A DNA stretch of 64,000 bases from Candidatus Uhrbacteria bacterium (GTDB taxonomy: Bacteria; Patescibacteriota; Patescibacteriia; JACRJV01): positions 16,090 to 80,089 of the forward strand of contig JACRJV010000027.1 in the NCBI GenBank assembly GCA_016215325.1, read 5' to 3'. The first letter of the stretch is position 1. Each line of letters begins with the position of its first letter. The notes beneath the pieces are model-generated. The model saw only the letters and a program-made list of their open reading frames with translations. It was not told the origin of the DNA and did no database searches. A program made the translations under genes and the position numbers. Of the stretch, positions 11,278 through 64,000 are shown one piece after another.

Positions 11278-12027
11278 ATGGCACTAACCGGCGCTCGCAC
11301 TCTTGCACGCCGCATGGTCGGCGTTTCTGCAAAACATCCGGCAGGACAGTACGACGAACTCGACATTCTTTACCGAATTAGTGATACGATTAGCACCAAT
11401 CTTGACCTTGATGACGTATTTTTACGCATCATTAAACTGGTCGAAATGGTGACAAAGGCAGATGCATGTCACCTTTTCCTGTTGATGGATAATGAATTGG
11501 TATTGCGCGCTTCGAGCAAATCGCGGAGTAAACTCATTGGCAAGCTAAAATTGAAACTCGGGGAGGGCGTGGCTGGTTGGGCCGCGGTCAATCAAGAGAT
11601 GGTCGAGATTCCCGAAAAAGCGTACGAGGATCCGCGTTATCGATTTGTGCAAGAATTGCCGGGGGACCAATATGAAGCGCTTTTGTCGGCCCCGCTATTT
11701 TTCCGTGATCGAGTGGTTGGGGTTATCAATATTCGCAGTAAGCAGCCGCGCCATTACCCCGATCATATTTGCAATCTTTTACGCGTGATTGGCCGCCAAG
11801 TCGGGGGTGCGATCGAAAACGCGCGGATGCTGGAAGGAACCAAGAGTTTCCGCAGCGTGGTGGCTACCAGGAAATTTATTGACCGAGCAAAAGAGTTGAT
11901 TTCGCGGAAGATGCATATTTCTTCTGACACCGCCTACGAAGTCCTTTTGCGCGAGAGTATGAAAAGCGGCAAGAGCGTGAAGGAAGTTGCCGAAGCCATG
12001 ATGATTGCCGATGAGATCGAAAAGTAG
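11278..12027 (+). CDS. GAF-ANTAR RNA-binding antitermination regulator (paralog)
   Basis: Aligns along its whole length with 7056..7796 (HPAGxYxELDxLY..., ANTAR region TAYEVLLRESMKSGKSVKEVAEAM). Confidence 0.75.
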   Translation: MALTGARTLARRMVGVSAKHPAGQYDELDILYRISDTISTNLDLDDVFLRIIKLVEMVTKADACHLFLLMDNELVLRASSKSRSKLIGKLKLKLGEGVAGWAAVNQEMVEIPEKAYEDPRYRFVQELPGDQYEALLSAPLFFRDRVVGVINIRSKQPRHYPDHICNLLRVIGRQVGGAIENARMLEGTKSFRSVVATRKFIDRAKELISRKMHISSDTAYEVLLRESMKSGKSVKEVAEAMMIADEIEK

Positions 12028-13173: not shown

Positions 13174-13328
13174 TTCGCACAATCCATAGTGAATGACAAG
13201 GGTTTACGGGAGCTCTTGCCCAGCGGGCACTGATATGGTAGTCTAGAGGCATACTATTGGCGTTTATCCGCGTGTTGATCCCTGCCTACCGGCAGGCCAG
13301 GCGCGTTTTTCTGCTTCTACAAAAAAAT

Positions 13329-17305: not shown

Positions 17306-20300
17306 ATGTCCCAAGAGAGCCAAAAGTACAATCATGGAGAAATAGAGGAAAAGTGGCAGAAGCAATGGGTCGATCAGGGCATCTATCAACAGTACGATCG
17401 ACCGGAAAAGTTTTACGCGTTGGACATGTTCCCATACCCGTCCGGGGCGGGACTGCATGTCGGCCACCCCAAAGGCTATATTGCGACAGACGTGTTTACG
17501 CGCATGAAGATGCTCCAGGGCAAGAGCGTGTTGCACCCCATGGGGTGGGATGCTTTTGGATTGCCGGCCGAAAATTACGCGATTAAAAATAAGGTGCACC
17601 CCGCCAAGGCCGTTGCGGAGAACATCGTCGTGTTTAAACAGCAGCTCCAAAAAATCGGTTTTACGTATGATTGGGATCGCGAAGTGAATACCACTGATCC
17701 CGCGTATTATCGTTGGACGCAATGGATTTTTCTTAAGCTGTTTGAACACGGGCTTGCGTACGAAGCCGACGAACCCATCAACTGGTGCCCGTCGTGCAAG
17801 ACCGGGCTTGCCAATGAGGACCTGGAAGACGGCAAATGCGAACGGTGCAGCAGTGTCGTTGAGCAGAAGAAAATGCGGCAATGGAAATTGCGCATGACGG
17901 CGTATGCGGATCGGTTGCTCGAAGACTTAGACAAGACCAAGCTCCAGTGGGAAGAATCGATTAGAATCCAGCAACGCAATTGGATTGGCAGGAGTGAAGG
18001 GGCTATTGTAAAATTTTCAATTTCTCCGCCCAAGGCGGATCCGCCTCTGGCGGACAATTTCCAATTTCCAATTGACGTCTTCACCACCCGCATTGATACG
18101 ATTTTTTCTGGCACCTTTTTAGTGTTGGCTCCGGAGCATGAGTTCGTGGACGCAGTAAAGGAGCATATTCAGAATTGGAATGAAGTGGAAACATATCGTC
18201 AAACACTCCAAACCGTTTCTTTGATTGACCGCACTTCTGCAGGGCGAGAAATCACTGGTATTGAACTCAAAGGCATCACCGCGATCAATCCCGCGACCAA
18301 AGAATCGATGCCAGTCTGGATTGCCGATTTTGTATTGGCGCAATACGGTACGGGAGCTGTCTTTGCCGATGCGCACGATACTCGAGATTTTGCAATGGCA
18401 AAAAAATATCGTATTCCACTCAAGGTTTCTATCCAACCAGAGGATCCTGCATTGCTTGAGCAAGTGAAGGCCCTTGCTGTGTGTTATCCCGGCGAAGGAA
18501 AATTATTTAACTCCCAGCAGTTTGATGGAATGACTTCTGCTCAAGCGCGTCCAAAGATCGTTGAGTGGTTGTCGCAACAAGGGAGCGCGAAACCCACCGT
18601 CAACTACAAAATGCGCGACTGGGTGTTTAGCCGTCAACGGTATTGGGGCGAGCCGATCCCGCTCATTCATTGCGAACAATGCAAGAAGAAAAAATATCAA
18701 TATGTGTTTATCCATGGATTCACTGGGAGCTCTCAGGGTGTGTTTTTCCCGTGGCTTGCGCAAGAACTAAAACGTCAAGGACACACAGTGTTCTGCCCCG
18801 ATCTCCCCAACACCGAACATCCCAACATTCAAGAGCAAGTGGAATATATTTTGGACAATACCGCAATCAACGAAGACACGATCCTCGTCGGCCACAGTCT
18901 TGGGGGGGTTGTCATGATGAAATTATTAGAGCAGATCTCGGGCAGTGTCCGGCGCGCGGTATTTGTCGATCCGGTGGTATCCAAGACATTTAATGACCAT
19001 GCTCGGCCAGACGTGGAAAAGAGTAATGATTGGAAATTTGATTATGCAAAAATAAAATCAAACATTCGAGAAGTTGTTGTGTTGGCAGACGCTCGGCATC
19101 CTATTATTCGCGTCGAGGATATTGAGAAATTGCGAACAGTCTTGAATGCAAACCAGACGATCACCGTGCATCCGGAAGCAGACCATTTTACCGCCTCTCA
19201 AGAACCGGAAATTTTGCGGGCGATTGACAGCATCGGCACCATTGCGTTGTCGGAAGACGAGTTGCCGCTGAAATTGCCTGAGGTCGAGAAGTATGAACCC
19301 ACCGGCACGGGCGAATCACCGCTAGCGGGTATCCCTGAATGGGTGAATACAACGTGCCCGCAGTGCGGTGGGGCAGCCCGGCGCGAGACCAATACGATGC
19401 CGCAATGGGCAGGATCCAGTTGGTACTACCTCCGGTATATTGATCCGCGTAATGGTGCCGCACTGGTTGATTTGAACAAAGAAAAAGAATGGATGCCCGT
19501 CGATCTCTATGTCGGTGGCGCAGAGCATGCCACGCGACATTTGCTGTATGCGCGGTTTTGGCATAAGTTCTTGTATGATATTGGCTCGGTATCGACTATC
19601 GAACCCTTCAAGCGATTGATCAATGTCGGCCTTATCCTTGCCGAGGATGGCCGTAAGATGAGCAAGCGGTGGAGCAACGTCATTAATCCGGACGATATTA
19701 TCGAACACTACGGCGCAGACAGCTTGCGCTTGTACGAAATGTTCATGGGGCCGTTTACGCAAAGTATCGCGTGGAGCACCGATGGCGTTAAAGGTGTGCG
19801 GCGATTTTTGGATCGTGTCTGGAATTTGAAAGAGCGAACTCTGAACCCTAAACTCTCTACCCTGAACCCTAATATCGATCGCCTCCTCCACCAAACCATT
19901 AAAAAAGTCACGGACGACATCGAGGGTTTTAGATTTAATACCGCCGTATCTCAAATGATGATTTTAGTCAACGCAATGGAAAAAGCCGATTCTCTGCCCC
20001 TATCTCAATTCTCTATCTTGCTATTGTTGCTCAGCCCGTTCGCTCCGCACATGGCCGAAGAGTTGTGGCACCAGCTGGGAAACTCGGAATCGATTTTCGA
20101 AGCGCAGTGGCCACAGTACGATCCATCGCTTGCCAAAGAAAGCGAAGTGGAATTTGTGGTGCAGGTCAATGGCAAGGTGCGCGATCGGTTCGCGATTCCC
20201 GTGGGACTGCCAGAAGTCCAAGTCATTGCGCAATCGTTAGAACGCGATGCGGTCAGGGGGTGGCTGGAAGGCAAGCAAATCCGCAAGAAAATTTTTGTGC

Positions 20301-20332
20301 AGGATACGTTATTGAATATCGTCGTCTCATAA
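17306..20332 (+). CDS. leuS: Leucyl-tRNA synthetase carrying an inserted alpha/beta-hydrolase domain
   Basis: HIGH motif (HVGHPKGY), KMSKR motif, CP1 editing domain; 1008 aa, about 190 aa longer than typical LeuS. Confidence 0.92.
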   Translation: MSQESQKYNHGEIEEKWQKQWVDQGIYQQYDRPEKFYALDMFPYPSGAGLHVGHPKGYIATDVFTRMKMLQGKSVLHPMGWDAFGLPAENYAIKNKVHPAKAVAENIVVFKQQLQKIGFTYDWDREVNTTDPAYYRWTQWIFLKLFEHGLAYEADEPINWCPSCKTGLANEDLEDGKCERCSSVVEQKKMRQWKLRMTAYADRLLEDLDKTKLQWEESIRIQQRNWIGRSEGAIVKFSISPPKADPPLADNFQFPIDVFTTRIDTIFSGTFLVLAPEHEFVDAVKEHIQNWNEVETYRQTLQTVSLIDRTSAGREITGIELKGITAINPATKESMPVWIADFVLAQYGTGAVFADAHDTRDFAMAKKYRIPLKVSIQPEDPALLEQVKALAVCYPGEGKLFNSQQFDGMTSAQARPKIVEWLSQQGSAKPTVNYKMRDWVFSRQRYWGEPIPLIHCEQCKKKKYQYVFIHGFTGSSQGVFFPWLAQELKRQGHTVFCPDLPNTEHPNIQEQVEYILDNTAINEDTILVGHSLGGVVMMKLLEQISGSVRRAVFVDPVVSKTFNDHARPDVEKSNDWKFDYAKIKSNIREVVVLADARHPIIRVEDIEKLRTVLNANQTITVHPEADHFTASQEPEILRAIDSIGTIALSEDELPLKLPEVEKYEPTGTGESPLAGIPEWVNTTCPQCGGAARRETNTMPQWAGSSWYYLRYIDPRNGAALVDLNKEKEWMPVDLYVGGAEHATRHLLYARFWHKFLYDIGSVSTIEPFKRLINVGLILAEDGRKMSKRWSNVINPDDIIEHYGADSLRLYEMFMGPFTQSIAWSTDGVKGVRRFLDRVWNLKERTLNPKLSTLNPNIDRLLHQTIKKVTDDIEGFRFNTAVSQMMILVNAMEKADSLPLSQFSILLLLLSPFAPHMAEELWHQLGNSESIFEAQWPQYDPSLAKESEVEFVVQVNGKVRDRFAIPVGLPEVQVIAQSLERDAVRGWLEGKQIRKKIFVQDTLLNIVVS
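18683..19258 (+). other. In-frame inserted RBBP9/YdeN-like serine hydrolase domain within LeuS, between the CEQC and CPQC halves of the zinc knuckle
   Basis: YVFIHGF...FPWL...VGHSLGG...ADHF pattern of PF06821-like alpha/beta hydrolases; lower GC than the flanking leuS sequence. Confidence 0.7.
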
Positions 20333-21012: not shown

Positions 21013-21051
21013 GCGGCCGGCACAGGGGTTCCCTCCCTCTGTTCCGGCCGC
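21013..21051. repeat. 39-nt palindromic repeat GCGGCCGGCACAGGGGTTCCCTCCCTCTGTTCCGGCCGC, copy 1
   Basis: Exact copy at about 22284-22322; stem of about 12 bp, then a T-rich tail. Confidence 0.7.
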
Positions 21052-22283: not shown

Positions 22284-22322
22284 GCGGCCGGCACAGGGGT
22301 TCCCTCCCTCTGTTCCGGCCGC
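22284..22322. repeat. 39-nt palindromic repeat, copy 2, immediately after the stop of 21798..22265
   Basis: Identical to 21013-21051. Confidence 0.7.
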
Positions 22323-22989: not shown

Positions 22990-23152
22990 CCTTGCGGTCC
23001 GCGTAAGAGCCCTCCCTCTTGCCCGGACCGCGTTTCTTTTATAGGGCAGACGAGCAGATAAGCCTGCCTGCCGGTAGGCAGGGAGGTAAAGAGACAAAGA
23101 TATACGGGCGGATAATTGGATAAAGTATTGCGGTATGGTAGGGTGATGGTGT

Positions 23153-24256
23153 ATGGATTGGGATCAATTTGTTCAACGGCATGCCGGCGATGGAGGGCTG
23201 TTGCAGTCCAGTAGCTGGGCCAAGTTTCAGCGTGGGCTGGGAAGAACGGTAGATGCTATTGTCATTCCCGCGAAGGCGGGAATCCAGAAAATAAAAACTG
23301 ATCGTGGATCCCTGCCTATCGGGCGGGCAGGCCCGATCTCGGTCGGGGATGACACCGCAATGGTTGCGTTAATCATTGAACATAGATTCCCGTTTGGTCA
23401 GTCGTATGTGTATTCGCCGAGGGGGCCGGTCACAAAATTTCCAATTTCCCTGCCTTGCTGGCAGGCAGGCAATTTCCAATTTTCAATGAACGGTATTGTT
23501 AGTGAAATCCGCAAGAAATTCCCAAAGGCAATTTATTGGAGAGTAGAGCCACCATACGAAAATTTTCAATTTCCCTGCCTTGCCGGCAGGCAGGCAATTT
23601 CCAATTTCCAATTAAGGAGTGCTCCGCACAATGTGCAGCCAGCGACGACGCTCATTATCGATCTTTCAACATCCGAAGAAGAACTCTTGGCGCAGATGAA
23701 ACAGAAGACGCGATACAACATTAAGATTTCACAACGACATGGGGTGCGAGTTTCAGTAAACAGTGAACAAGAAACAGTAAACAACTTTCTGGATTTGTTG
23801 GAAGAAACGGCCAAACGCGATGGGTTCCGTGTTCATCCGCGGGGGTATTATCAGAAATTTCTCACCCTCACCCCAACCCTCTCCCAGGGGGAGAGGGGGT
23901 TGAGCATCGAACTCTTCGGCGCTTTCCACGGCGATCAGCTCCTCGCCGGTGCCATTGTCGCGTTCTACGGCAAGTGGGCGTATTACTTGCACGGAGCTTC
24001 GTCATCCGGGCGTCGCGACTTGATGGCTCCGTATTTCTTGCATTGGGAAATTATGCGGGAAGCCAAACGGCGTGGGTGCACGAAGTATGATTTTTGGGGG
24101 GCAGGGGATGAATGGCCGGGCGTTTCCAAATTTAAAACCGGCTTTGCGCCGGCAACTGCGTTGACTCACTATCCTGGAACGTTTGATATTGTCCTTGACC
24201 GGAAAAAATATTTCGTGTATCGTGCGTTTCAAACGATTCGACGCCTCGGGTCGTAG
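23153..24256 (+). CDS. FemAB-family peptidoglycan peptide-bridge aminoacyltransferase carrying three in-frame repeat-element insertions
   Basis: C-terminal YYLHGASSSGRRDLMAPYFLHWEIMREAKRRGCTKYDFWGAG...FKTGFAP is typical FemX/FemAB; the N-terminal half is interrupted by palindromic elements. Confidence 0.7.
   Translation: MDWDQFVQRHAGDGGLLQSSSWAKFQRGLGRTVDAIVIPAKAGIQKIKTDRGSLPIGRAGPISVGDDTAMVALIIEHRFPFGQSYVYSPRGPVTKFPISLPCWQAGNFQFSMNGIVSEIRKKFPKAIYWRVEPPYENFQFPCLAGRQAISNFQLRSAPHNVQPATTLIIDLSTSEEELLAQMKQKTRYNIKISQRHGVRVSVNSEQETVNNFLDLLEETAKRDGFRVHPRGYYQKFLTLTPTLSQGERGLSIELFGAFHGDQLLAGAIVAFYGKWAYYLHGASSSGRRDLMAPYFLHWEIMREAKRRGCTKYDFWGAGDEWPGVSKFKTGFAPATALTHYPGTFDIVLDRKKYFVYRAFQTIRRLGS
23262..23340 (+). 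repeat. Palindromic insertion (ATTCCCGCGAAGGCGGGAAT hairpin plus a CCCTGCC...GGCAGG variant) inside the FemAB-like CDS
   Basis: Perfect 8-bp stem; in-frame; encodes IPAKAGIQ... Confidence 0.5.
23434..23488 (+). repeat. Repeat element AAATTTCCAATTTCC-CTGCCTTGCTGGCAGGCAGG-CAATTTCCAATT inserted in-frame in the FemAB-like gene
   Basis: Near-identical copy at about 23549-23613; the CCTGCC-N8-GGCAGG palindrome also occurs at about 13281, 23063 and 36187. Confidence 0.65.
23549..23613 (+). repeat. Second copy of the TTCCAATTTCC-CTGCCTTGCCGGCAGGCAGG-CAATTTCCAATTTCC element in the FemAB-like gene
   Basis: As above. Confidence 0.65.
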
Positions 24257-27609: not shown

Positions 27610-27677
27610 GCCCCCGTAGATCACGGTAGATCGTCCGCTCAACACGCGGGAGGTAGGGTTCAATTCCCCCGGGGGCT
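27610..27677 (+). pseudogene. tRNA-like element 1 (atypical; possibly a degenerate tRNA)
   Basis: Perfect 7-bp acceptor stem (GCCCCCG/CGGGGGC), D-arm GATC-ACGGTA-GATC, T-loop GGTTCAATTCC; but a weak T-stem and an anticodon loop TCAACAC with no U33. Confidence 0.3.
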
Positions 27678-27684
27678 CCGAATC

Positions 27685-27753
27685 CGCTCGCGTAGCTCAA
27701 CGTAGAGCGGCCCGACAACATCGGGCAGACGCGGTTCGAGTCCGCACGCGGGC
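27685..27753 (+). pseudogene. tRNA-like element 2 (atypical; possibly a degenerate tRNA)
   Basis: Acceptor GCTCGCG/CGCGGGC, D-arm TAGCTCAACGTAGAGC, anticodon stem GCCCG/CGGGC, T-arm CGCGGTTCGAGTCCGCA; anticodon loop ACAACAT is non-canonical. Confidence 0.3.
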
Positions 27754-27945
27754 ATCACCTCCACTCCCCGCATTCTGCGGGGCAAACCGGCTGGGGAGAG
27801 TGTCGTTCGCCTCATCGCGAACAACTCTCCCTGGCCGCCCTCCCTCAAAAACAAATCACTCTATAAAAGATAAAAATAAATTATTTTTGTGCACCCTCTT
27901 GACAGTGCAATTGAATTCCCATAAACTCGTCTGTTATACTAGGTC

Positions 27946-30349: not shown

Positions 30350-30420
30350 TCGGGCTGCCGGGAATTGAACCCGGTCTACATGCACCCCATGCATGCGTAC
30401 TACCGGTATACTACAGCCCG
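30350..30420 (-). tRNA. tRNA-Pro (anticodon GGG)
   Basis: Cloverleaf on the minus strand: acceptor CGGGCTG/CAGCCCG, anticodon arm CATGC-ATGGGGT-GCATG, T-arm CCGGGTTCAATTCCCGG. Confidence 0.85.
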
Positions 30421-32739: not shown

Positions 32740-32847
32740 AAGCAAGATTAATTTTCAATTATCAATTTGCAATTTTCAGTGAATTTTCAATTGATCATTG
32801 AATATTGATTGAAAATTAGAAATTGGAAATTGAAAATTTTTTTGTTT
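32740..32847. repeat. AT-rich spacer element (AATTTTCAATTATCAATTT...TTGAAAATTAGAAATTGGAAATTGAAAAT) upstream of fusA
   Basis: An about 40-nt near-identical stretch also occurs at about 56022; the family is shared with the 36421, 40972, 56017 and 57223 spacers. Confidence 0.6.
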
Positions 32848-36186: not shown

Positions 36187-36207
36187 CCCTGCCTACCGGC
36201 AGGCAGG
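36187..36207. repeat. Copy of the CCCTGCCTACCGGCAGGCAGG palindrome between xseA and xseB
   Basis: Same palindrome as at about 13281 and 23063, and inside the FemAB-like gene. Confidence 0.6.
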
Positions 36208-36420: not shown

Positions 36421-36518
36421 TTTCCAATTTCCAATGAATTTTCATTGTCATTATTCTTAAATTGAATCATTGTAAATTCAATGAAAATTGTTACTTGAAA
36501 ATTGAAAATTATATCGGT
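36421..36518. repeat. AT-rich spacer element (TTTCCAATTTCCAATGAATTTTCATTG...AATTCAATGAAAATTG...TTGAAAATTGAAAAT) upstream of dnaE
   Basis: Contains the 16-nt palindrome CAATGAATTTTCATTG; shares ATTCAATGAAAATT with the 56017 spacer. Confidence 0.6.
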
Positions 36519-40971: not shown

Positions 40972-41081
40972 TCCTTAAATTTCCAATATCTAATATCCAA
41001 TTTCCAATAAAATGTCCAATGCTCGAATGACAGAATAATTTGTTTATTCCGACATGTAGCATTGGATTTTTATTAGAAATT
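40972..41081. repeat. AT-rich spacer element (AAATTTCCAATATCTAATATCCAATTTCCAAT...) upstream of thrS
   Basis: Member of the GGAAATTGG/TTCCAATTT family. Confidence 0.55.
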
Positions 41082-52071: not shown

Positions 52072-53622
52072 TTATTCAATACCTAACTTATCGCGGAGCA
52101 ATTGTGCAGCAATCTCCGGGTTCGCCCTTCCTTTAGTTTTTTTCATTACTTGGCCGACTAAAAATTGCAGTGCGGTCACCTTCCCACCTTTCACATCTGC
52201 CACCACCTTTGGGTTCTCTGCGACTACCGTGTCGACATGTTCTTGGATGCTTGCGGCATCCGAGACTTGTGCGAGCCCTTGTTCTTCGAGGATTTGGCTC
52301 GGATCGCCTCCGGAAACCACCATATGAGTGAGTAGTTGGAGCGCATTAGTGCCATTGACCTTGTTGGTTGCGATCATCGATAGTAACTCCGCGAGATTTT
52401 CCGCATCGAGTTTCATCGTCGACAATGTTCGTTTTTGTTCGTTGAGCACTCCGAGCAGCTTGCTGCCGATCCAGCCGGCGACAAGTTTTGTCCATTTAGA
52501 ACGTGTTTGCAATGCCGCATCACTCGCCTCTCCCACAGTATCGCGGATCCATGTGGTGAGCTCTGCCATCACTTGCTCCACAAAAGCGGCGAGTTCTTTT
52601 GAGTCGCAGAAGACCGCTGCATCAGAACTGGTAAAACCGTACTCTTGCTCAAATCGTTGCCGTTTTGCTGCAGGCAGTTCCGGGAGTTGCTGTACAATTC
52701 CGGCAATGCGTTCGGGCGTAAATGTTATTGGCGGTAAATCGGGTTCGGGGAAGTATCGATAGTCGTGCGCTTCTTCTTTTGTGCGTTGCTCGACCGTGAT
52801 ACCGCGAGCATCATCCCATCCGCGAGTGGATTGGAAATTGACTGGATTTCCTTCTTCCCAGAGTTTGGTTTGACGGATGATTTCGTATTCCAGGGCACGC
52901 TCCACCGATTTGAATGAATTCATATTTTTCACTTCTGTTTTTGGCCCGAGTTTCGAGTAATCCGTAATCCAGTCCTCCTGGTCCCTGGCCACTGGTCCCT
53001 GGCCACTGACCTCTCGCATGGAGATATTTGCATCACACCGCAGATGCCCCTTTTCCATATCTGCTTCGGAAACGCCGATGTACCGTGCGATGCGCTGGAG
53101 TTCTTGTAAGAAATTCTTGGCTTCCGCCGGGGAGCGGAAATCTGGTTCCGTGACGATCTCCATGAGCGGGGAGCCGGCGCGGTTAAAATCGACATAGGAT
53201 TCTTTATTTTTTCCATGCAGGAGTTTGCCGGCGTCTTCTTCAAGGTGGAGGCGAGTGATTCGGATTTTTTTCTGGTATTTCCCCTTGGGGGAGGCCACGT
53301 CAAAGACCACCGCGCCATTCGTGCATAACGGTTGGTCGTATTGGGAAATTTGATAGCCCTTGGGGAGGTCGGGATAGAAATAATTTTTTCGGTCAAACTT
53401 GGAGAACGCTGCAACGGTGCACCCTAACGCTGCACCCATGAGCGCCCCCTTTTCGAGTGCAATGCGGTTGATGATCGGCAGCGTCCCTGGCTGTCCGGTG
53501 CAGATCGGGCAGATGGCTGTGTTGGGGGCCTCGTCTTCGACCATGTTCGGGCAGCCGCAGAACATTTTGCTCTGGGTATTAGTGCGGATGTGGATTTCTA
53601 ATCCTATAATCGGCTGTAGCAT
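52072..53622 (-). CDS. gatB: Asp/Glu-tRNA(Asn/Gln) amidotransferase subunit B
   Basis: N-terminal GLEIHIRTNTQSKMFCGC...CPICTGQPG. Confidence 0.92.
   Translation of the reverse strand: MLQPIIGLEIHIRTNTQSKMFCGCPNMVEDEAPNTAICPICTGQPGTLPIINRIALEKGALMGAALGCTVAAFSKFDRKNYFYPDLPKGYQISQYDQPLCTNGAVVFDVASPKGKYQKKIRITRLHLEEDAGKLLHGKNKESYVDFNRAGSPLMEIVTEPDFRSPAEAKNFLQELQRIARYIGVSEADMEKGHLRCDANISMREVSGQGPVARDQEDWITDYSKLGPKTEVKNMNSFKSVERALEYEIIRQTKLWEEGNPVNFQSTRGWDDARGITVEQRTKEEAHDYRYFPEPDLPPITFTPERIAGIVQQLPELPAAKRQRFEQEYGFTSSDAAVFCDSKELAAFVEQVMAELTTWIRDTVGEASDAALQTRSKWTKLVAGWIGSKLLGVLNEQKRTLSTMKLDAENLAELLSMIATNKVNGTNALQLLTHMVVSGGDPSQILEEQGLAQVSDAASIQEHVDTVVAENPKVVADVKGGKVTALQFLVGQVMKKTKGRANPEIAAQLLRDKLGIE
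52979..53009. repeat. Tandem 14-mer repeat (CTGGTCCCTGGCCA, 2 copies) inside the gatB CDS
   Basis: Encodes VSGQGPVARDQ; the same CTGGTCCCTGG word recurs upstream of nusG and rplA. Confidence 0.6.
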
Positions 53623-53720
53623 AGTGGATGGTTGCTGGAATTGGAGATTGGTAATAGAGAGTAGAAAATAGAGGTTGGAAACATTTCTAATCTCTATACA
53701 CCAATTTCCATTACCAGTCT
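53623..53720. repeat. Palindromic AT-rich spacer (GGTTGCTGGAATTGGAGATTGGTAATAGAGAGTAGAAAATAGAGGTTGGAAAC...) between tmk and gatB
   Basis: Related to the 26952-27062 palindrome. Confidence 0.6.
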
Positions 53721-54477: not shown

Positions 54478-56016
54478 TTACCGTTCAAAAAATTCCCTTG
54501 GGAAATTCATCTTCACTGCGCGAAGGTCTCGCACCAGCAGGGGGTGAATAGCCTTCACTTTTTCGAACATCTCGTAACAGAGATCGCGATAGGAAAAATG
54601 TCCGCCGGATTTGGTGCGCAGTTCCACCATGTGGTAGAGTTCGCGCAAGTTCATTTTAAAGAGAGTTCGTTTTTTCCAACCAAGGGCAATCAGGTATTGG
54701 CTCGCGTACCCCACTGTTGAACGGAGTGTTTCGACACGGGCGCGATTGCGCTGCATGAATTGAGTATAGCGGTCCAGCAACCCCGCATCTTCAATATCGC
54801 GTGGAATTTCATATCCATGCAACGTGCTGACCCCCTGATTAATTTGGCTTGTGATGCGATGGCGTTGGAGGTCGCGGAATGCGCCGTAATCAAAGAGGGT
54901 ATCGAATAGGAGGCCTTGTCCGACTTCGAACTCCCGGCTTACCCAGTCATGGGACCCTCGTTTGTTCTGAACGCTGTCCAATATATCCTGCTTGGTTTCC
55001 AGCGGAAGCGGACGGACAGTTTCTACAATCGTGCGGAATGGGAGCGTTGATTCGGCGTAGAGCAGTGTCGCAATCAATTCATCCTCTGGTGTTATTTGGC
55101 CGCTGATGTAATCAACGCGGGGTTCCGGAATGCGAGATTCGGGGCTTGTGACGCCGGATAACAACCGTTCCGTCCATTGGCGCATGTTCTTACTTTTCTC
55201 CATGAGATATTGTTTGGGGTCGGTATGTTTTACGAGCGTCGGAGCGCCCTTGACTTGCAATGTCAGTTGCTGGCGCAATTCTTGAATCAGATGTGGCTCC
55301 GATGTTGATCCGAGCAAGCGTTCTAATAGTGGTTGGATTTTATTGAATTGCGGATTGTATGCGGCGGTGGTTGCTGCGTGTTGAAGCTCCTTTCCGATCG
55401 AATGCATTTCTAACAGTGGGTGCGCGAGCAGCTTTGAAATGCAATGCCGCAATTCCCGCGCGTTCATGATCATACCAAAATTAGTGAGCGTTGCTGTCGG
55501 CAATAGATACCGCGCAACATCCAAGGCTCGTGCGCAGCATTTGTTGGCATACGCTTTGTCGCTCATCTCCGCAGGCTTTGCGTAGGTCTTCTGATAGAAT
55601 GCGACCATCGCTTCCGTGATCGTCTGGTATCCTTCCATCAAGTCTCTGATCCCTTCAACATACAGGGCGCGCATGGCCGGGTCGGCGAGTTCTTCTGGGA
55701 CAAAAAAACGGTCGATGTGGAATGGTTGATACCGTGTTGATTTTTCTTGGAACGATGCCATGCGACAGTCCTCCACCACTTTGCTGGCAAGAATGGAGAT
55801 ATTCTCCAGCGCCATTGGGATCACCGCCATGTCGGCAACCGATGCATCCCCAAACCCCAACACCCATTTTTCGTGGAATTCGGCGCTTTTTTCCTCGGTC
55901 AACTCATCAATCGTTTCCTTGATCGATGCCCCCGATCGGCTGTATTTTGCCATAGCAACAGCCAAGACTTCGGGCGGGAGTCCTGCGATGGAGAAGATGG
56001 AGCGCTCAAAAGACAT
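54478..56016 (-). CDS. thyX: FAD-dependent thymidylate synthase, tandem-duplicated form (512 aa)
   Basis: ThyX signature RHRxxS (LQRHRITSQ) in the C-terminal half; length is about twice a canonical ThyX. Confidence 0.75.
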   Translation of the reverse strand: MSFERSIFSIAGLPPEVLAVAMAKYSRSGASIKETIDELTEEKSAEFHEKWVLGFGDASVADMAVIPMALENISILASKVVEDCRMASFQEKSTRYQPFHIDRFFVPEELADPAMRALYVEGIRDLMEGYQTITEAMVAFYQKTYAKPAEMSDKAYANKCCARALDVARYLLPTATLTNFGMIMNARELRHCISKLLAHPLLEMHSIGKELQHAATTAAYNPQFNKIQPLLERLLGSTSEPHLIQELRQQLTLQVKGAPTLVKHTDPKQYLMEKSKNMRQWTERLLSGVTSPESRIPEPRVDYISGQITPEDELIATLLYAESTLPFRTIVETVRPLPLETKQDILDSVQNKRGSHDWVSREFEVGQGLLFDTLFDYGAFRDLQRHRITSQINQGVSTLHGYEIPRDIEDAGLLDRYTQFMQRNRARVETLRSTVGYASQYLIALGWKKRTLFKMNLRELYHMVELRTKSGGHFSYRDLCYEMFEKVKAIHPLLVRDLRAVKMNFPREFFER

Positions 56017-56122
56017 AACAGTAAATTTTCAATTATCAATTTTTAATTTTCAATGAATGATTCAATTTAGAATTTTTCAACATTGAAAATTCAATGAAAA
56101 TTTTAAATTGGGAATTGGAAAT
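56017..56122. repeat. AT-rich spacer element (AAATTTTCAATTATCAATTTTTAATTTTCAATGAATG...TTGAAAATTCAATGAAAATT...GGAATTGGAAATT)
   Basis: About 40 nt nearly identical to the fusA upstream spacer; shares a motif with the dnaE spacer. Confidence 0.6.
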
Positions 56123-56557: not shown

Positions 56558-56631
56558 AGATCAGTAAGCAGTAAGCAGTAATGGTGCCATCGTTTACGAT
56601 TGCTTCTTGCTCACTGTTTCTTGTTTCTCAA
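56558..56631 (-). promoter_or_regulatory. Conserved leader element upstream of dut: GAAACAAGAAACAGTGAGCAAGAAGCAATCG then CTTACTG heptamer repeats
   Basis: About 30 nt nearly identical to the leader upstream of rplK (58516-58555). Confidence 0.5.
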
Positions 56632-57222
56632 CTAAGACTGGAAGTCTTCCGGCAGAAACTTCGTTGAGGTTTGTCCGGTTTGCTGTTTAAACCGTCCTTT
56701 TTGTTGATATGAAAACTCCACCGGAGAGCTTAACTCTTCGAAGGTGAAACTGCAAATGCGCATCCCGGGGTAGAGCGCCACGGGGATCCGGCCTTGGTTG
56801 CCGAGCTCGAGCATGGGGTTGCCGTCCCAGCCGGGGTCAAAGCGCGCTGCTGTTGAATGGACGATAATGCCGACTCGGGCAAGACTTGACCGCCCTTCCA
56901 GCCGGCCGATCAAATCATTGGAAAGCGTGAGTCGTTCGCGGGTGGCGGCGATAATGAGTTCCCCAGGGTGGATAATAAAACGTTCCCCATCCGGGATCTC
57001 CACGAGTCTCGTGACCGTATCAATCACGAGCTCCTGGAGGGGATCGATGATCGGGAGCTTGTTATAGTCAAATACGCGGAATGTATTGCCTAAGTGGAAG
57101 TCGACAGAGCACGGCCGTAAAATCGAGGACGTAAGGTCCGGGGAAGGTTCCATCTGGATTCGTCCAGCAGCAAACGCGCGGCGGATGTCACGGTCGGACA
57201 AAATCACAATGAAAATTTTCAA
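56632..57222 (-). CDS. dcd: dCTP deaminase
   Basis: ILSDRDIRR N-terminus, FDPGWDGNP motif; TTG start at 57222 or GTG at about 57207. Confidence 0.85.
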   Translation of the reverse strand: MKIFIVILSDRDIRRAFAAGRIQMEPSPDLTSSILRPCSVDFHLGNTFRVFDYNKLPIIDPLQELVIDTVTRLVEIPDGERFIIHPGELIIAATRERLTLSNDLIGRLEGRSSLARVGIIVHSTAARFDPGWDGNPMLELGNQGRIPVALYPGMRICSFTFEELSSPVEFSYQQKGRFKQQTGQTSTKFLPEDFQS

Positions 57223-57280
57223 TACCCAATTCCAATTCCCAATACACGTCGACTATTCATTGGAAATTAGGAATTGGGAA
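57223..57280. repeat. AT-rich spacer element (CCCAATTCCAATTCCCAAT...CATTGGAAATTAGGAATTGGGAATTAGAAATT)
   Basis: Member of the GGAATTGG/GGAAATT family. Confidence 0.55.
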
Positions 57281-57958
57281 TTAGAAATTAATTTTTATGC
57301 CCGGCCCCATGGTCGAGCTCAAGGTCACGGATTTGATAAACGTCCCTTTTGAGGAAGACGGTTTGAGTTTGGGTAAGACGCTCAAGAGTTCGCGAATATT
57401 TTCGATGAGTTTTAGAGCGTCCCAAGATACTTTTCCTACCGGCACGTGAATATTGCCGGTTGGGTCGTTCTTGATCGTCATTTTCCCCTTTTTAAGTTCT
57501 GCAATTGCAGCGGCGAGGTTGGGCGTAATCGTTTGATTCTTGGGGCTGGGCATGAGTCCTTTGGGCCCGAGTATTTTGGCAACACTGGCGAGCTTGGGCA
57601 TCATGGCGGGGGTTGCGATCGCAACATCAGCGTCGAATTTGCCCGTATTTTTAATTTCGGCAATCAGCTCTTCACCGCCAACAGTATCCGCTCCAGCGGA
57701 TTTTGCCTCTTCTTGTTTTGCCGATTCTGCGAAGACCATGATTTTTTTGGTTTTCCCAGAGCCGTGGGGCAACATTGTGCTCCCGCGCACGTTCTGATCG
57801 GATTTGCCCGTATCAATGCCAAGATTCACATGCACTTCAACGGTGCCGTCAAATCGTGCCGCGGACGTTGACTTGACGAGAGCAACCGCCTCATCAAGAG
57901 GGTAGGTCTTCTTTGCATCGACGGTTGCCTTCTTTTTGGTAAAACGGGTACTTGACAT
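57281..57958 (-). CDS. rplA: 50S ribosomal protein L1
   Basis: L1 family sequence; rplK-rplA order. Confidence 0.92.
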   Translation of the reverse strand: MSSTRFTKKKATVDAKKTYPLDEAVALVKSTSAARFDGTVEVHVNLGIDTGKSDQNVRGSTMLPHGSGKTKKIMVFAESAKQEEAKSAGADTVGGEELIAEIKNTGKFDADVAIATPAMMPKLASVAKILGPKGLMPSPKNQTITPNLAAAIAELKKGKMTIKNDPTGNIHVPVGKVSWDALKLIENIRELLSVLPKLKPSSSKGTFIKSVTLSSTMGPGIKINF

Positions 57959-57960
57959 AA

Positions 57961-57993
57961 GGTTCCAGGTTCCAGGTTCCAGGTTCCAGGTTC
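57961..57993. repeat. Heptanucleotide tandem repeat GGTTCCA (4.7 copies) immediately upstream of the rplA start codon
   Basis: GGTTCCAGGTTCCAGGTTCCAGGTTCCAGGTTC. Confidence 0.75.
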
Positions 57994-58053
57994 TCGATCG
58001 CTGAGGTGCGGTGCGATCTGGTCCCTGGGACCTATACCCCTGGCCCCTTCGTG

Positions 58054-58479
58054 TTAATCAACAATCTCCACGCCCATGCTTTTTGCAGACCCCTCCATCA
58101 TGCGGATTGCGCTTTGCAGACGCGTGGTGTTCAAATCAGGGAGTTTGCGTTTGGCGATTTCTTCCAATTGTTTGCGGCTGATTTTACCTATTTTTTCCTT
58201 TTGTGGCTTGCCAGAACCTTTTTGGAGATTCATCGCTTTCTTAATAAGTTCCGCCGCCGGGGGTGTCTTTGTGATAAAGTCGTAGCTGCGGTCTTCGAAG
58301 ACGGTGATCACCACCGGCAATACATCGCCGATTTGTCCTTTGGTTTTGTCATTAAACTTTTTGCAAAATTCCGCAATATTCAAACCATGTTGCCCCAACG
58401 CCGGACCAATGGGGGGCGCGGGGTTGGCTTGTCCCGCCGGGATTTGGAGTTTGATGGTTGTCTTCACTTTTTTGGCCAT
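58054..58479 (-). CDS. rplK: 50S ribosomal protein L11
   Basis: [32 protein letters not shown]; start at the internal Met. Confidence 0.92.
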
Positions 58480-58485
58480 ACGTTC

Positions 58486-58514
58486 AGTGAACAGTGAACA
58501 GTGAACAGTGAACA
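58486..58514. repeat. Heptanucleotide tandem repeat AGTGAAC (about 4 copies) upstream of rplK, nested in a 12-bp hairpin
   Basis: CAGTGAACAGTGAACAGTGAACAGTGAACA; the mRNA-sense hairpin is AACAGTGAACAA...TTGTTCACTGTT. Confidence 0.7.
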
Positions 58515-58555
58515 ATCGTGATTGTGCTTCTTGTTCACTGTTTCTTGTTTACTGA

Positions 58556-59101: not shown

Positions 59102-59163
59102 AAGATGCTCGGTGTCAGGTTATAGGTTCCAGGTCGCGGACCGTGCGCTCTGGTCCCTGGTCC

Positions 59164-59367
59164 CTATCGTAACGATAGTAGATACTCCAATCCTTTATTG
59201 AGTCCAAAATCGAACAATGCCAACACTAATCCAATTCCACCGCTGGCGCCAATGACCAAAAGAGTGAGTCGCGTGGCCTCCTTGCGTGTTGGCCATACAA
59301 TATGAGAGAGCTCTGAACGAGCGCCCTTGAAATATTGTACGAACGGGTTCAATTTTGCTTCAGCCAT
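59164..59367 (-). CDS. secE: Preprotein translocase subunit SecE
   Basis: Single C-terminal transmembrane helix; secE-nusG-rplK-rplA order. Confidence 0.85.
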   Translation of the reverse strand: MAEAKLNPFVQYFKGARSELSHIVWPTRKEATRLTLLVIGASGGIGLVLALFDFGLNKGLEYLLSLR

Positions 59368-61740: not shown

Positions 61741-61764
61741 AATAAGGTTCCAGGAACCTTATTA
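61741..61764. repeat. Perfect 23-nt palindrome AATAAGGTTCCAGGAACCTTATT between convergent genes
   Basis: Self-complementary; contains the GGTTCCAGG word that is repeated upstream of rplA. Confidence 0.6.
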
Positions 61765-64000
61765 AATATCCAAATTCTTGACGGTCTTGGCATGCACTTG
61801 GATAAAGTGTTTTCTGGGGGCCACTTCGGCGCCCATTAAGATGTCGAACATTTCGTCCGCTTTCTCGGCATCTTCTACCGTAACAGAGCGCATCATGCGG
61901 TGTTCGGGGTCCATGGTCGTGGTCCAGAGTTGTTCGGGGTTCATTTCCCCCAACCCTTTATATCGTTGGATCGTGATACCCCCAACGGTGGTGGTGGCGC
62001 CTTCCTCCGATCCCCCAGATTCAATTGTTTTTTCTTGTGGCGGTTGGGCTTTCTGCTTGATTGCGGTCTGGAGCTCTTGGAGTAATTTCAATTTTTCTTC
62101 TTCCGAATACGCGTATCGGATCTCTTTGCCGCGAGCGAGGCGATAGAGCGGGGGATGAGCAATGTAGAGGTATCCATCCGTAATGATTTTAGCAAAATGT
62201 CGCCAGAACAAGGTGAGTAACAATGTCCGAATGTGCGCGCCATCCACATCGGCATCGGTCATGATGATAATGCGGTGGTACCGCAGTTGTGTGATATCAA
62301 ATTGCTCTCCGAAGTTGGTGCCCATGGCAATGATAAGATTTTTAATTTCGTTATTGGCAAGAATCTTATCGATGCGCGCGCGCTCCACATTGAGAATTTT
62401 CCCCCGCAGAGGCAGCACCGCTTGGAAGTAGCGATTGCGCCCTTGCTTGGCACTGTTGTGCACAAAGATTCCGCTTGCAAGAGCAAAGTTGTGGGTGTTG
62501 GGCACCTCAAAATCGTACACATCCATCCGTTGCTGAATTTTTTGGACACGGGCAATTTTATGGTTATAGTTTGCAACGGCTGTCTGGGCGGCATGTGTAT
62601 TGCCATTAAAATACCTCTTTACAAAGGTGTCGAATCGTAGCAGTGTTTTGTCGTTGGTGGTTTTTCGAATCGTGTTATAGGCTGAGACATCAAGGTCGCG
62701 ATGTTTATCGAATACGACTTTCAACTGGGCGATCGTTTTTTTGAAATATGTTGTATTGTAAGCATTTTTGCGTTTCATGCGTTCACGCATCATTTTTTTA
62801 AATTCCGGTGTCTGTTTTACTAAACGAGACTTCTCTTTAACGTCCTCGCGGTGCAATGTTTTTGAAACATGATCACGATGCCATTGCAGATGTGCTTCTT
62901 TCGAGAGGCGCACGAGATTGGTAGGATTATTATTTGATTTATCAAAATCTTTATGGTGCCGATGTTCTCCGTCCTGGATTGCGTAAACGTCGTGTTGAAT
63001 ATTCCATTCGTCTGCCCGCATGTGAGTAAAGACCCATCGGTGTTCTTGGGGGTCAAAGAGTAATTCGTAATCTTTAATCGTAATACGTTTTCCGAGTCGT
63101 GATTTTTGTCGTCGCAGCGGCATGAGGGAATCGTAGGGGGTTAAATTTTTAGCCACGATATAGCTCCCATCACGAGTCATAAAACGGTGGTCCGGAGTAC
63201 AGGTGATTTCCTCGCCTGTATCAAGAATGATTTTGATCACCTCCGCTTGTTTTTTCGTCACGCGGGGGTTGCGGATCTCCTCGATGCCAATGGTCCCATC
63301 ATTGCGGACGGTATAGCAAAAGTTTTTCATCCCTTGTTTATCTTCGGCAATGAGTTGGCGGAAGTCCACGGATCGCCCATCGGCCAGTGCAATCTTGGTA
63401 TCACCGGAAAAACATCCACCGGCGCTGTCTCCCTCCACAATGTAGAGTTCGCTTTGCGCTGGGTCTTTGCTGGAGCAATCCGCGAGTTTACCGGGCAACG
63501 TCAGTCCATCGAGCACGCCTTTGCGCAAGACTGTTTCGCGGGCCGCTTTGGCTGCAAGACGGGCTCGGGACGTGAGCAGACACTTCTCTATAATGGCTTC
63601 GGCCGCCTTGGGCTGTTCTTCTAAAAACATCGCGAGCGCTTCTCCAAAGACGGTTTCGACAGCAGTGCGCACCTCGGGGTTGCCCAGCTTGGATTTGGTT
63701 TGCCCTTCAAATTGGGGGTTGGAGAGTTTAACACTGATGACGGCGGTCAAGCCTTCGCGCACATCATCACCCGTTAAATTTTCATCCTTTTCTTTGAGGT
63801 ACCCTTTGCCGCGGGCATAGGAGTTGAGGCTCCGGGTGAGCGCGGTGCGGAACCCCACTACATGACTCCCGCCTTCGGGGTTGTAAATGTTATTGGCAAA
63901 TGCCAAAATATGCTCTTTATATTCATCGGTGTATTGTAATGCGACTTCGACATGCGCTTCCGGAGCTTGTTTTGAAACATAGAACGGCGTCGGCTGCTGC
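61762..64000 (-). CDS. gyrB: DNA gyrase subunit B (5'-truncated at the window edge) containing an intein
   Basis: TOPRIM motifs EGDSAGG / SAKQGR split by the intein; PLRGKILNVE; C-terminal QRYKGLGEMNPEQLW; the frame stays open to the window end. Confidence 0.9.
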   Translation of the reverse strand, partial: QQPTPFYVSKQAPEAHVEVALQYTDEYKEHILAFANNIYNPEGGSHVVGFRTALTRSLNSYARGKGYLKEKDENLTGDDVREGLTAVISVKLSNPQFEGQTKSKLGNPEVRTAVETVFGEALAMFLEEQPKAAEAIIEKCLLTSRARLAAKAARETVLRKGVLDGLTLPGKLADCSSKDPAQSELYIVEGDSAGGCFSGDTKIALADGRSVDFRQLIAEDKQGMKNFCYTVRNDGTIGIEEIRNPRVTKKQAEVIKIILDTGEEITCTPDHRFMTRDGSYIVAKNLTPYDSLMPLRRQKSRLGKRITIKDYELLFDPQEHRWVFTHMRADEWNIQHDVYAIQDGEHRHHKDFDKSNNNPTNLVRLSKEAHLQWHRDHVSKTLHREDVKEKSRLVKQTPEFKKMMRERMKRKNAYNTTYFKKTIAQLKVVFDKHRDLDVSAYNTIRKTTNDKTLLRFDTFVKRYFNGNTHAAQTAVANYNHKIARVQKIQQRMDVYDFEVPNTHNFALASGIFVHNSAKQGRNRYFQAVLPLRGKILNVERARIDKILANNEIKNLIIAMGTNFGEQFDITQLRYHRIIIMTDADVDGAHIRTLLLTLFWRHFAKIITDGYLYIAHPPLYRLARGKEIRYAYSEEEKLKLLQELQTAIKQKAQPPQEKTIESGGSEEGATTTVGGITIQRYKGLGEMNPEQLWTTTMDPEHRMMRSVTVEDAEKADEMFDILMGAEVAPRKHFIQVHAKTVKNLDI
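62455..63414 (-). mobile_element. GyrB intein (320 aa) with an HNH homing-endonuclease domain
   Basis: Starts with Cys right after GDSAGG and ends with VHN followed by Ser (SAKQGR); internal HNH motif HHKDFDKSNNNPTNLVRLSKEAHLQWH. Confidence 0.85.

Follow-up and report, generated by a model that had tools for sequence, protein, structure and literature searches.

Heptanucleotide repeat modules in operon junctions and essential genes of a Candidatus Uhrbacteria genome

The DNA analysed in this study (the window) is a stretch of 64,000 nucleotides of contig JACRJV010000027.1 (assembly GCA_016215325.1, positions 16,090 to 80,089 of the forward strand) from a Candidatus Uhrbacteria bacterium, a member of the Candidate Phyla Radiation (CPR, or Patescibacteria). 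It carries tandem repeats with a 7-nt unit upstream of rplA, rplK, dut and nusG and inside gatB and a phosphohexomutase (PGM) gene, an arrangement that had been taken, in an original prediction made on this DNA, to hint at contingency-like variability or a conserved leader structure. Our results suggest another explanation, which we consider probable: the repeats are genome-wide heptamer-repeat modules, resembling the short tandemly repeated repetitive (STRR) sequences of Calothrix and Nostoc and the hairpin-forming doublets (REPINs) of repetitive extragenic palindromic (REP) sequences, and they are tolerated where they are harmless, being neither phase switches nor ribosomal-protein leaders.

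Period-7 arrays in the window

All six of the repeats named in the original prediction were found where it had placed them, and the identities of the genes are backed by Pfam (that of dcd, the gene preceding dut, by PF22769). The rplA array (AGGTTCC x4.9) and the rplK array (CAGTGAA x4.3) are both perfect and lie 1 nt and 5 nt from their respective ATG codons (57956-57958 on the minus strand and 58477-58479), while the dut array (CAGTAAG x2.9) is 4 nt from the first dut ATG. The nusG-side array, CTGGTCC x2.3 at 59150-59165 in the secE-nusG spacer, directly follows the secE stop codon and is about 48 nt upstream of the nusG GTG. The repeat inside gatB is a 14-mer (x2.2, about 52978-53008), and the one inside the phosphohexomutase gene consists of 3.9 perfect TCCGACC units, or 6.9 when degenerate copies are included. 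A 12-bp perfect helix that had been claimed at rplK was confirmed as well (AACAGUGAACAA paired with UUGUUCACUGUU).

Exact period-p runs were counted both in the window and in 20 dinucleotide shuffles. At period 7 there were eight such runs against 0.05 expected, and at periods 14 and 21 five each against the same expectation; the remaining periods from 2 to 20 gave none, apart from a single run at period 12. A looser criterion gave ten regions at period 7 as against 0-1 at periods 4-12. The period-7 repeats in the window are not the product of chance. Tandem Repeats Finder returned 57 rows, of which 37 have a period of 7 or 14 and represent 32 distinct arrays, and the six sites first noted are a sample of this window-wide feature. 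Operon junctions hold about ten of the arrays or array pairs and genes about eleven, all in frame; the rest are in other non-coding DNA. An assembly artefact was ruled out, since the arrays are only 16-48 nt long and similar arrays are present in independent assemblies from several sources. Two properties by which heptameric simple sequence repeats (SSRs) and STRR-type repeats are recognised are seen here, in that 7-nt units are over-represented relative to other periods and a unit family recurs at many dispersed loci. The density of period-7 arrays per 100 kb is 15.6 in the window, compared with 4.8 in 65 CPR loci and 0.33 in 18 non-CPR loci. In the survey of CPR loci period 8 was the second commonest after period 7, and the repeat units vary between CPR lineages.

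Within the window the repeats form three main dispersed families of modules about 20-35 nt in length: AATTTCC (about 11 loci), CAGTGAA/CAAGAAA (4 copies) and GGTTCCA/GGGACCA, with arrays of the last type at 57960, 58020, 59117, 59150 and 52977. At least the AATTTCC, GGTTCCA, TCCGACC and CTGGTCC units are free of stop codons in all six reading frames. Some copies are clearly paralogous. The segments 32750-32784 and 56024-56058 are 91% identical over 35 nt, keep the same irregular order of variant units and have opposite orientations relative to transcription, and 56601-56626 and 58525-58550 are 96% identical over 26 nt. Such matches argue that the modules were dispersed by copying and not by independent slippage alone.

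Palindromes at operon junctions and arrays inside genes

The leader arrays do not stand alone (Table 1): each is matched by a degenerate inverted array from its own unit family, and the two form the arms of an imperfect palindrome. Palindromes of this kind fill all of the spacers in the secE-nusG-rplK-rplA-dcd-dut-thyX run and are also found at the tmk-gatB, rpsG-fusA and xseB-dnaE junctions. The three families alternate along the secE-to-thyX operon: GGTTCCA/GGGACCA holds the secE-nusG and rplK-rplA junctions, CAGTGAA/CAAGAAA holds nusG-rplK and dcd-dut, whose elements also share their orientation, and AATTTCC/AATTTTC holds rplA-dcd and dut-thyX together with tmk-gatB, rpsG-fusA and xseB-dnaE. 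Spacers rich in period 7 make up 10 of the 26 between co-directional genes in the window and none of the 20 between divergent or convergent genes (Fisher p = 0.0024); the convergent spacers carry ordinary terminators, a GC hairpin followed by a T tract. The possibility that the junction hairpins are themselves intrinsic terminators was rejected, as a promoter/terminator scan found no terminator-like site at any of them. The only promoter-like site in the region lies upstream of secE (59457-59429).

When the transcribed strand was folded, the junction elements gave hairpins of 14-45 base pairs, and seven of the nine folded better than shuffled sequences (z-scores of -3.2 to -7), the weak ones being secE-nusG (-1.45) and xseB-dnaE (-0.9). 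The hairpins begin 0-10 nt past the upstream stop codon and finish 0-14 nt ahead of the next start codon, so that spacers of 62-108 nt collapse to 0-15 unpaired nt once they form, and in four of them the stop codon itself is base-paired. The nusG-rplK hairpin (27 pairs, free energy -24.3 kcal/mol, z -3.6) leaves no unpaired nucleotide after the stop codon and 4 nt before the ATG, and the rplK-rplA hairpin (30 pairs, -44 kcal/mol, z -4.25) leaves 4 nt after the stop and none before the ATG. The rplA-dcd fold from stop to start has 25 pairs and a free energy of -25.7 kcal/mol, with the UAA stop codon inside the hairpin; its z-score of -4.1 refers to a slightly longer stretch. The dcd-dut hairpin (z -3.2) finishes at the ATG, and the secE-nusG hairpin begins at the stop codon and leaves 14 nt before the GTG. 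The dut-thyX fold has 40 pairs (z -5.7) and the rpsG-fusA fold 45 (-37 kcal/mol, z -6.95). Folding of the leaders had been proposed as a check in the original prediction; at nusG-rplK, rplK-rplA and dcd-dut it yielded hairpins with z-scores of -3.2 to -4.25, and at secE-nusG only a weak one. The single AATTTCC module upstream of thrS has no inverted partner and is unstructured on folding.

The relatives identified through RplA belong to Uhrbacteria, Magasanikbacteria, Falkowbacteria and other Patescibacteria. Closest to the window are L081 (equal in sequence to L082 and L083), L084 and L085, whose RplA is 74-76% identical to its own, and exact-protein look-ups of RplA and RplK found no second strain of the species on record, the next relative being 76% identical. 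The spacers of these three genomes are much shorter: 3-12 nt at secE-nusG, 2-4 nt at nusG-rplK and 4-18 nt at rplK-rplA, compared with 62, 76 and 95 nt in the window. The hairpins at these three junctions are therefore recent, lineage-specific gains. No dcd-dut junction exists in the sister genomes, in which another gene precedes dut. The sisters carry like elements elsewhere, L084 at dut-thyX (where L081 has only 9 nt) and both L084 and L081 at tmk-gatB.

The arrays inside genes (GatB, PGM, TrpRS, LeuRS, FemAB and ELP3) all preserve the reading frame and are situated in variable loops or small insertions. That of GatB sits in a 15-residue loop absent from Thermotoga GatB, and the same 39 nt of gatB in L081 and L084 hold an 8/16-nt repeat instead, so that the length is kept and the sequence replaced. 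In PGM there are seven additional residues (21 nt, three units) between domains I and II compared with the solved Xanthomonas PGM. The LeuRS and FemAB genes share one module, AATTTTC followed by three AATTTCC units and AATT, which in both is interrupted after nt 13. The LeuRS insert (18025-18054) consists of two 15-nt GC mini-hairpins (tccgccNNNggcgga) and adds ten residues relative to T. thermophilus LeuRS. A GC-rich mini-hairpin of 20-21 nt, CCTGCCTGCCGGTAGGCAGG, occurs at four sites (13281-13300, 23063-23082, 23574-23594 and 36188-36207), namely within a DksA/TraR-like gene and within xseB, in each case in the N-terminal part, within a small open reading frame (ORF) and inside the AATTTCC module of the FemAB gene. 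The LeuRS gene as a whole (17306-20332, plus strand, 1008 residues) also has an alpha/beta-hydrolase domain inserted at about residues 467-628, between the halves of the catalytic core, and the same insertion is seen in the relative P0141.

The array-bearing loop of LeuRS lies between the motifs WIGRSEGA and VFTTRPDT. An array at this loop was found in L096, L101, L139, L191, P0211, P0232 and the window, and in the first four of these it is an uninterrupted (AATTTCC)4.6. Among 89 CPR LeuRS orthologues in which the site is readable, 67 have a 30-residue segment there and 2 clearly have the array-coded version. The nearest neighbours of each carrier lack the array (P0232, for example, is 81% identical to three array-less proteins), which makes recurrent origin at the LeuRS loop in divergent CPR lineages more parsimonious than descent. 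Metagenomes extend this picture, as the exact 21-mer (AATTTCC)3 is present in at least 120 metagenome contigs (L086-L205) with GC contents of 28 to 64%. Among the matches listed, 77 of the 120 (AATTTCC)n arrays lie deep inside long ORFs, where all three frames are used (NFQFPIS, ISNFQFP or FPISNFQ). Of these 77, 53 measure 30-33 nt and 55 start at one phase, whereas the 13 clearly non-coding arrays show no such mode. Other heptamer units likewise have a second length mode at 30-34 nt. The mode at 30-33 nt fits selection for frame, with one native unit plus three. Again among the matches listed, arrays occur at apparently the same positions of TsaD (4 contigs) and of LepA, PrmC, TrmD and Fmt (2 contigs each). 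A conserved non-repeat tail beside the AATTTCC arrays was considered and rejected, the information content of the flank consensus being about 0.3 and the tail being present in 7 of the 120 arrays listed. In viral contigs (AATTTCC)3 gave 11 hits, a composition-matched control 4, (GGTTCCA)3 11 and (CAGTGAA)3 22; the AATTTCC unit is thus not globally exceptional, and the viral AATTTCC arrays do not have the 30-nt, phase-0 form. A search of a protein database with the peptide (NFQFPIS)6 returned 18 weak hits, small cyanobacterial hypothetical proteins among them, and no usable census.

Table 1. Heptamer-repeat elements at junctions and inside genes of the window
Feature	Coordinates	Strand	Description
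secE-nusG spacer, 62 nt	59102-59163	-	Palindrome; arms GGGACCA x2.3 (59150-59165, plus strand) and GACCUGGAACCUAUAACC (59117-59135)
nusG-rplK spacer, 76 nt	58480-58555	-	CAGTGAA x4.3 arm (58485-58514, 30 nt) and degenerate partner TTCTTGTTCACTGTTTCTTGTTTACTG (58528-58554)
rplK-rplA spacer, 95 nt	57959-58053	-	AGGTTCC x4.9 arm (57960-57993) and degenerate partner TGGTCCCTGGGACCTATACCCCTGGCCCCT (58020-58049); GC-rich core
rplA-dcd spacer	57208-57280	-	AATTTCC-family palindrome; arms 57220-57243 and 57259-57290
dcd-dut spacer	56558-56631	-	CAGTAAG x2.9 arm (56562-56581) and partner TTCTTGCTCACTGTTTCTTGTTTCTC (56598-56626)
dut-thyX spacer, 106 nt	56017-56122	-	AATTTTC/AATTTCC-family palindrome
tmk-gatB spacer, 98 nt	53623-53720	-	AATTTCC/GGTAATAGA-type palindrome; orthologous to L084 element
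rpsG-fusA spacer	32740-32847	+	AATTTTC-family palindrome, stop codon to start codon
xseB-dnaE spacer	36421-36518	+	AATTTCC-family palindrome; weak fold
Single module upstream of thrS	40978-41009	+	Degenerate 32-nt AATTTCC module; begins at TAA stop codon
GatB array	52977-53008	-	14-mer x2.2 (sense heptamers CAGTGGC/CAGGGAC); residues about 205-215
Phosphogluco/phosphomannomutase array	4461-4508	+	TCCGACC array, in frame; residues about 166-182
TrpRS array	12771-12795	-	In frame, encodes SGVKGQGSV; +3 residues relative to solved TrpRS
ELP3-like radical-SAM/GNAT gene arrays	476-504, 586-612, 734-761	-	Three in-frame arrays (476-761 overall) in variable linker
LeuRS module	18012-18073	+	AATTTTC-AATTTCC module, in frame; split after nt 13 by 30-nt insert
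FemAB-family gene module	23561-23613	+	Same module as LeuRS, in frame; split at same position by 21-nt GC hairpin (23574-23594)

Several other features of the window were noted. A 39-nt GC-rich hairpin, GCGGCCGGCACAGGGGTTCCCTCCCTCTGTTCCGGCCGC, is present as a perfect duplicate at 21013-21051 and 22284-22322, each copy being followed by a T-rich tract, in a region of hypothetical genes without Pfam hits. An identical 18-mer, GAATACCATTGAGTATCT, stands at 7038-7055 and 11247-11264, just upstream of paralogous GAF-ANTAR regulator genes (7056-7796 and 11278-12027). The GyrB gene (61762-63906, minus strand) contains an intein (Intein_splicing domain, residues 206-484), which is also found in the GyrB of L081 and not in that of L084. 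ThyX (54478-56016, minus strand, 512 residues) has two Thy1-family stretches and looks like a tandem-domain protein, or pseudo-dimer, an arrangement common to the sister genomes. ARAGORN reported two tandem tRNA-Val(AAC) genes at 27610-27679 and 27686-27754, which the Rfam tRNA model did not support at its gathering threshold, and tRNA-Pro at 30350-30420 is the sole tRNA found by both programs.

Alternative explanations of the repeats

If the repeats are modules tolerated where harmless, their history would run as follows. Slipped-strand or fold-back replication at a 7-nt register would generate the arrays, and copy-and-paste or gene conversion would spread them between loci. Two inverted modules with a short core between them make up the imperfect palindrome that fills a whole spacer. 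Arrays would persist only where they do no harm, and within genes only frame-keeping insertions in tolerant surface loops would survive. At a junction the closed hairpin would restore approximately the ancestral distance between stop and start codon and so preserve translational coupling. Some of the heptamer hairpins may have been domesticated as mRNA structure elements.

Several points weigh against this explanation. Among the approximately 55 ORFs scanned in the window there was no transposase or reverse transcriptase, and specifically no transposase of the REP-associated tyrosine (RAYT; IS200/IS605-like Y1) type. Simple slippage leaves unexplained both the replacement of a loop by one of the same length, as in GatB and LeuRS, and the single start phase shared by 55 of the 77 in-ORF arrays listed. 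Another difficulty comes from the tmk-gatB element, which is 76% identical to its orthologue in L084, and about 90% identical in the 3' arm, although 4-fold degenerate sites between these genomes are saturated (30-45% identity; 32% in gatB). Non-orthologous elements of the same family reach no more than 56% identity to it and shuffles at most 63%. The element appears to be constrained, and its conservation despite saturated synonymous sites argues for function rather than pure neutrality. The dut-thyX element was also considered as a sign of constraint, and this was rejected because it resembles paralogues at least as well as the L084 element, to which it is 70% identical.

These observations give some room to the explanation that the junction hairpins are selected cis-acting RNAs, acting as RNase III processing sites, 3'-end stabilisers or tuners of coupling, with the periodicity merely reflecting the way they were built. 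We regard this as possible, if clearly the less probable of the two. Besides the conservation of the tmk-gatB element, it is favoured by the length and stability of the hairpins, with z-scores down to -7, by their reach from stop codon to start codon, and by other CPR lineages (L014/L017, L023, L025, L026, L031, L038, L047 and L054) that have periodic palindromes of unrelated units at nusG-rplK and rplK-rplA, just 5' of the ribosomal-protein leaders described below. However, such elements are absent from the same junctions of the three nearest genomes, and the same modules are found in coding sequence and in both orientations. The one orthologous pair, that of tmk-gatB, contains no base pair changed on both sides (in a comparison of two sequences), and the dut-thyX element is no closer to its orthologue than to its paralogues. 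In addition, folding is about as good for the antisense as for the sense strand, and G-U pairs are not consistently favoured in the latter, so that the palindromes look like DNA-level structures and not like RNA selected on the sense strand.

A bolder version of the proposal of tolerated modules, which we put forward as speculative and rather unlikely, is that CPR bacteria harbour the smallest known invasive DNA modules, in the form of heptamer arrays of about 30 nt and nested GC mini-hairpins of 15-21 nt. These would spread in a template-directed or target-specific manner and not by random slippage, would overwrite the same protein loops in independent lineages and would fill operon junctions as inverted doublets. 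If this were true, invasive modules would help to drive the evolution of protein loops and operon spacers in otherwise streamlined genomes.

It is improbable that the arrays are multivalent protein-binding sites, for S1, Csp or CsrA at start codons without Shine-Dalgarno motifs, or a signal of the DNA uptake type. The arrays do abut start codons that lack Shine-Dalgarno motifs, as proposed for the TAACTGA repeats (PMC4679880), and the recurrence of (AATTTCC)n at the LeuRS loop of carriers with array-less nearest relatives, like its occurrence at apparently shared positions of TsaD, LepA, PrmC, TrmD and Fmt, would suit a signal. Uptake sequences accumulate in tolerant coding positions and as inverted pairs. 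However, the units differ between CPR lineages and half of the hairpin copies are in the opposite orientation, and a single sequence-specific binder cannot account for an operon in which three or more unrelated unit families alternate.

The proposal that the repeats are contingency loci, in which slipped-strand changes of 7-nt units switch or tune the adjacent genes, was part of the original prediction and is very unlikely to hold. In its favour are the perfect arrays of 4-5 units that abut start codons, the 7-nt indels reported between Cyanothece strains (PMC4679880), and an indel of exactly 21 nt beside a start codon in the pair of genomes discussed next. The genomes L030 and L033 are 87-92% identical; one of their arrays, before nusG, is identical in both, and another, 9 nt upstream of a start codon, differs by the presence or absence of exactly 21 nt (three units). 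The array that L014 and L017 have in common shows no difference, and the three assemblies of the sister population are identical over the 6.4-20.7 kb that they share. The two orthologous arrays that can be compared, in genomes about 10% diverged, thus have equal copy numbers, so the arrays do not appear hypermutable at this timescale. They seem to be gained or lost in three-unit steps. The statement in the original prediction that only three-unit steps keep the frame was borne out by this indel, by the additional 21 nt in PGM and by the length peak of in-ORF arrays at 30-33 nt. In a phase-variable SSR a change in unit number switches a non-essential gene, whereas the arrays here are short (2-5 copies) and adjoin or sit in essential, single-copy housekeeping genes (rplA, rplK, nusG, dut, gatB, PGM, LeuRS and TrpRS), several of them within one operon, with no surface or restriction-modification genes involved. 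A slip of one unit inside a gene would be a lethal frameshift and therefore not a switch, and in a leader, since both arms are periodic, it could be absorbed by re-registering of the helix.

The remaining possibility was that conserved ribosomal-protein leaders with an autoregulatory role, bound by L1 or L11, make up all or part of the leader repeats. In 53 of 85 related loci a GUGGGAG...ACCAC motif with an intervening stem-loop precedes the rplA ATG by 8-12 nt, its carriers (in the L002-L067 range) including CPR, Lachnospiraceae, Desulforadius and Chloroflexaceae (for example L014:6760-6793 and L019:9962-9995); the motif is presumably the site of L1 autoregulation. Its inner helix (helix 2) covaries at all four pairs, and none of 500 shuffles reached the observed covariation score. 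A covariance model (R1) based on 44 of these L1 leaders recovered held-out leaders at 19-31 bits. With filters off, R1 found no match in the window or its three sisters, the best score being 6.6 bits at an unrelated site, and none at the rplK-rplA spacer (57959-58053) in particular. Rfam, searched at its gathering threshold over the whole window and at E <= 5 over 53.5-59.5 kb, returned only meaningless hits to miRNA-precursor-like hairpins; a scan of L014 with Rfam 15 did not report the L1 leader motif of that genome. A second leader motif, CUGGUCGC-hairpin-GAAUCCAG, or (C/G)UGGU(C/U)GC-hairpin-GAAUCCA(G/C)U, stands upstream of rplK in many CPR genomes (the nusG-rplK spacers of L017, L020, L021, L023, L028, L030, L039, L041-L043, L047 and L051-L054) and is absent from the window and its sisters. 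To judge from these searches, the clade of the window (with L081, L084 and L085) has lost both the L1 leader and the rplK leader of other CPR, and the heptamer hairpins are no substitute for the canonical leaders that could be recognised by sequence or predicted structure. Although the rplK-rplA hairpin occupies the exact position of the L1 leader in other CPR genomes and its core (GGGAC...GAUCGC...GCGAUC) loosely recalls it, the conserved leader structure suggested in the original prediction is hardly credible when neither R1 nor Rfam nor the rplK motif finds a match and the nearest three genomes have only 2-18 nt at these junctions.

Two further observations on the same region concern the relatives. 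Many CPR relatives (L003, L005, L009, L010, L012, L029, L030, L032, L033, L036, L038-L040, L042, L043 and L047) have an extra small gene between rplK and rplA, followed by the L1 leader, whose product starts with M(S/T)KGGS(I/V)ILRIYF and looks membrane-associated. The Falkowbacteria genome L025 has Shine-Dalgarno-like CTAAGGA arrays of about 5.5 copies, in the sense orientation, at 7067-7105 and 8699-8736, directly upstream of two divergent genes 1.6 kb apart, one of which is nusG.

Relation to known repeats and significance

Tolerated heptamer modules have precedents in other bacteria. As far as they are described in PMC4692102 and PMC4679880, the STRR sequences of Calothrix and Nostoc and the heptameric SSRs surveyed by Mrazek in 2007 share with the repeats of the window tandem 7-nt units, several dispersed families, a specific excess of period 7 and a location in spacers and also in genes. 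Unlike the STRR sequences, the arrays described here occur in a streamlined CPR bacterium, about one third of them are in frame in essential genes, and they are short (2-5 units) and typically paired into palindromes that run from stop to start codon.

The GGGAATC heptamers of Xanthomonas (Rehm et al. 2015, PMC4692102) are also intergenic and mostly lie between co-oriented ORFs, and intragenic GGGGAYT repeats in Nostoc are described in the same paper. In 70-75 cases per genome the Xanthomonas heptamers form convergent inverted pairs capable of a stem-loop, and between related genomes their length and sequence vary while the position is kept, both of which are likenesses to the junction palindromes. 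In contrast to the several units of the window, none of them G-rich, Xanthomonas has a single G-rich, quadruplex-prone unit, and its repeats lie nearer the upstream ORF and do not span the spacer as those of the window do. The TAACTGA repeats of marine Beggiatoaceae, cyanobacteria and Bacteroidetes (MacGregor 2015, PMC4679880) resemble the leader arrays in position: they comprise 2-6 copies of the heptamer just ahead of start codons, ending within a few nucleotides of them, ribosomal-protein genes and operons included, without a Shine-Dalgarno motif and with a few arrays inside ORFs, and closely related strains differ in them by 7-nt indels. However, TAACTGA is a single unit in the forward orientation with one inverted case, whereas in the window each array has an inverted partner and the units change between junctions.

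REP and REPIN sequences (Bertels & Rainey 2011, PMC3116915) are comparable in another way, as modules of about 20-35 nt that occur as singlets and as inverted doublets forming hairpins in the intergenic DNA of operons, with paralogous copies dispersed around the genome. REPs have no internal 7-nt periodicity, are strictly extragenic and are tied to RAYTs, whereas the modules of the window are periodic and are found inside genes too. Small dispersed repeats of Nostoc, to the extent that PMC3116915 and PMC5861425 describe them, offer a parallel to the 15-21-nt GC hairpins nested at a fixed position in the heptamer arrays of LeuRS and FemAB in the window, and so do the palindromic elements of Rickettsia, with which the window also shares the tolerance of in-frame repeat DNA in essential proteins. 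The nested hairpins of the window are smaller than the Rickettsia elements and belong to a host of another phylum, and are putatively mobile at most. Rickettsia palindromic elements insert in frame in genes, and Elhai and colleagues in 2008 reportedly described Nostoc small dispersed repeats embedded in heptamer arrays. The contingency loci of host-adapted pathogens likewise have short tandem units beside start codons or in coding sequence; unlike those, the repeats of the window concern essential housekeeping genes, have low copy numbers and showed no copy-number variation in the comparisons made.

A limited literature search found no paper describing such heptamer repeats in CPR bacteria. 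New features are the phylum of the host, the several unit families that alternate within a single operon, the reach of the palindromes from stop to start codon and the high share of arrays in frame in essential genes. The genomes of CPR bacteria are about 1 Mb in size and tightly packed. Nearly all of the unusually long within-operon spacers in the window, together with several loops of essential enzymes, are nonetheless repeat DNA, and streamlining does not exclude invasive or slippage-generated sequence. For annotation this calls for caution, as such hairpins should not be taken for regulatory leaders or phase-variation switches. If the recurring heptamer-coded segment of the LeuRS loop is directed rather than accidental, it would represent a new way of remodelling proteins.

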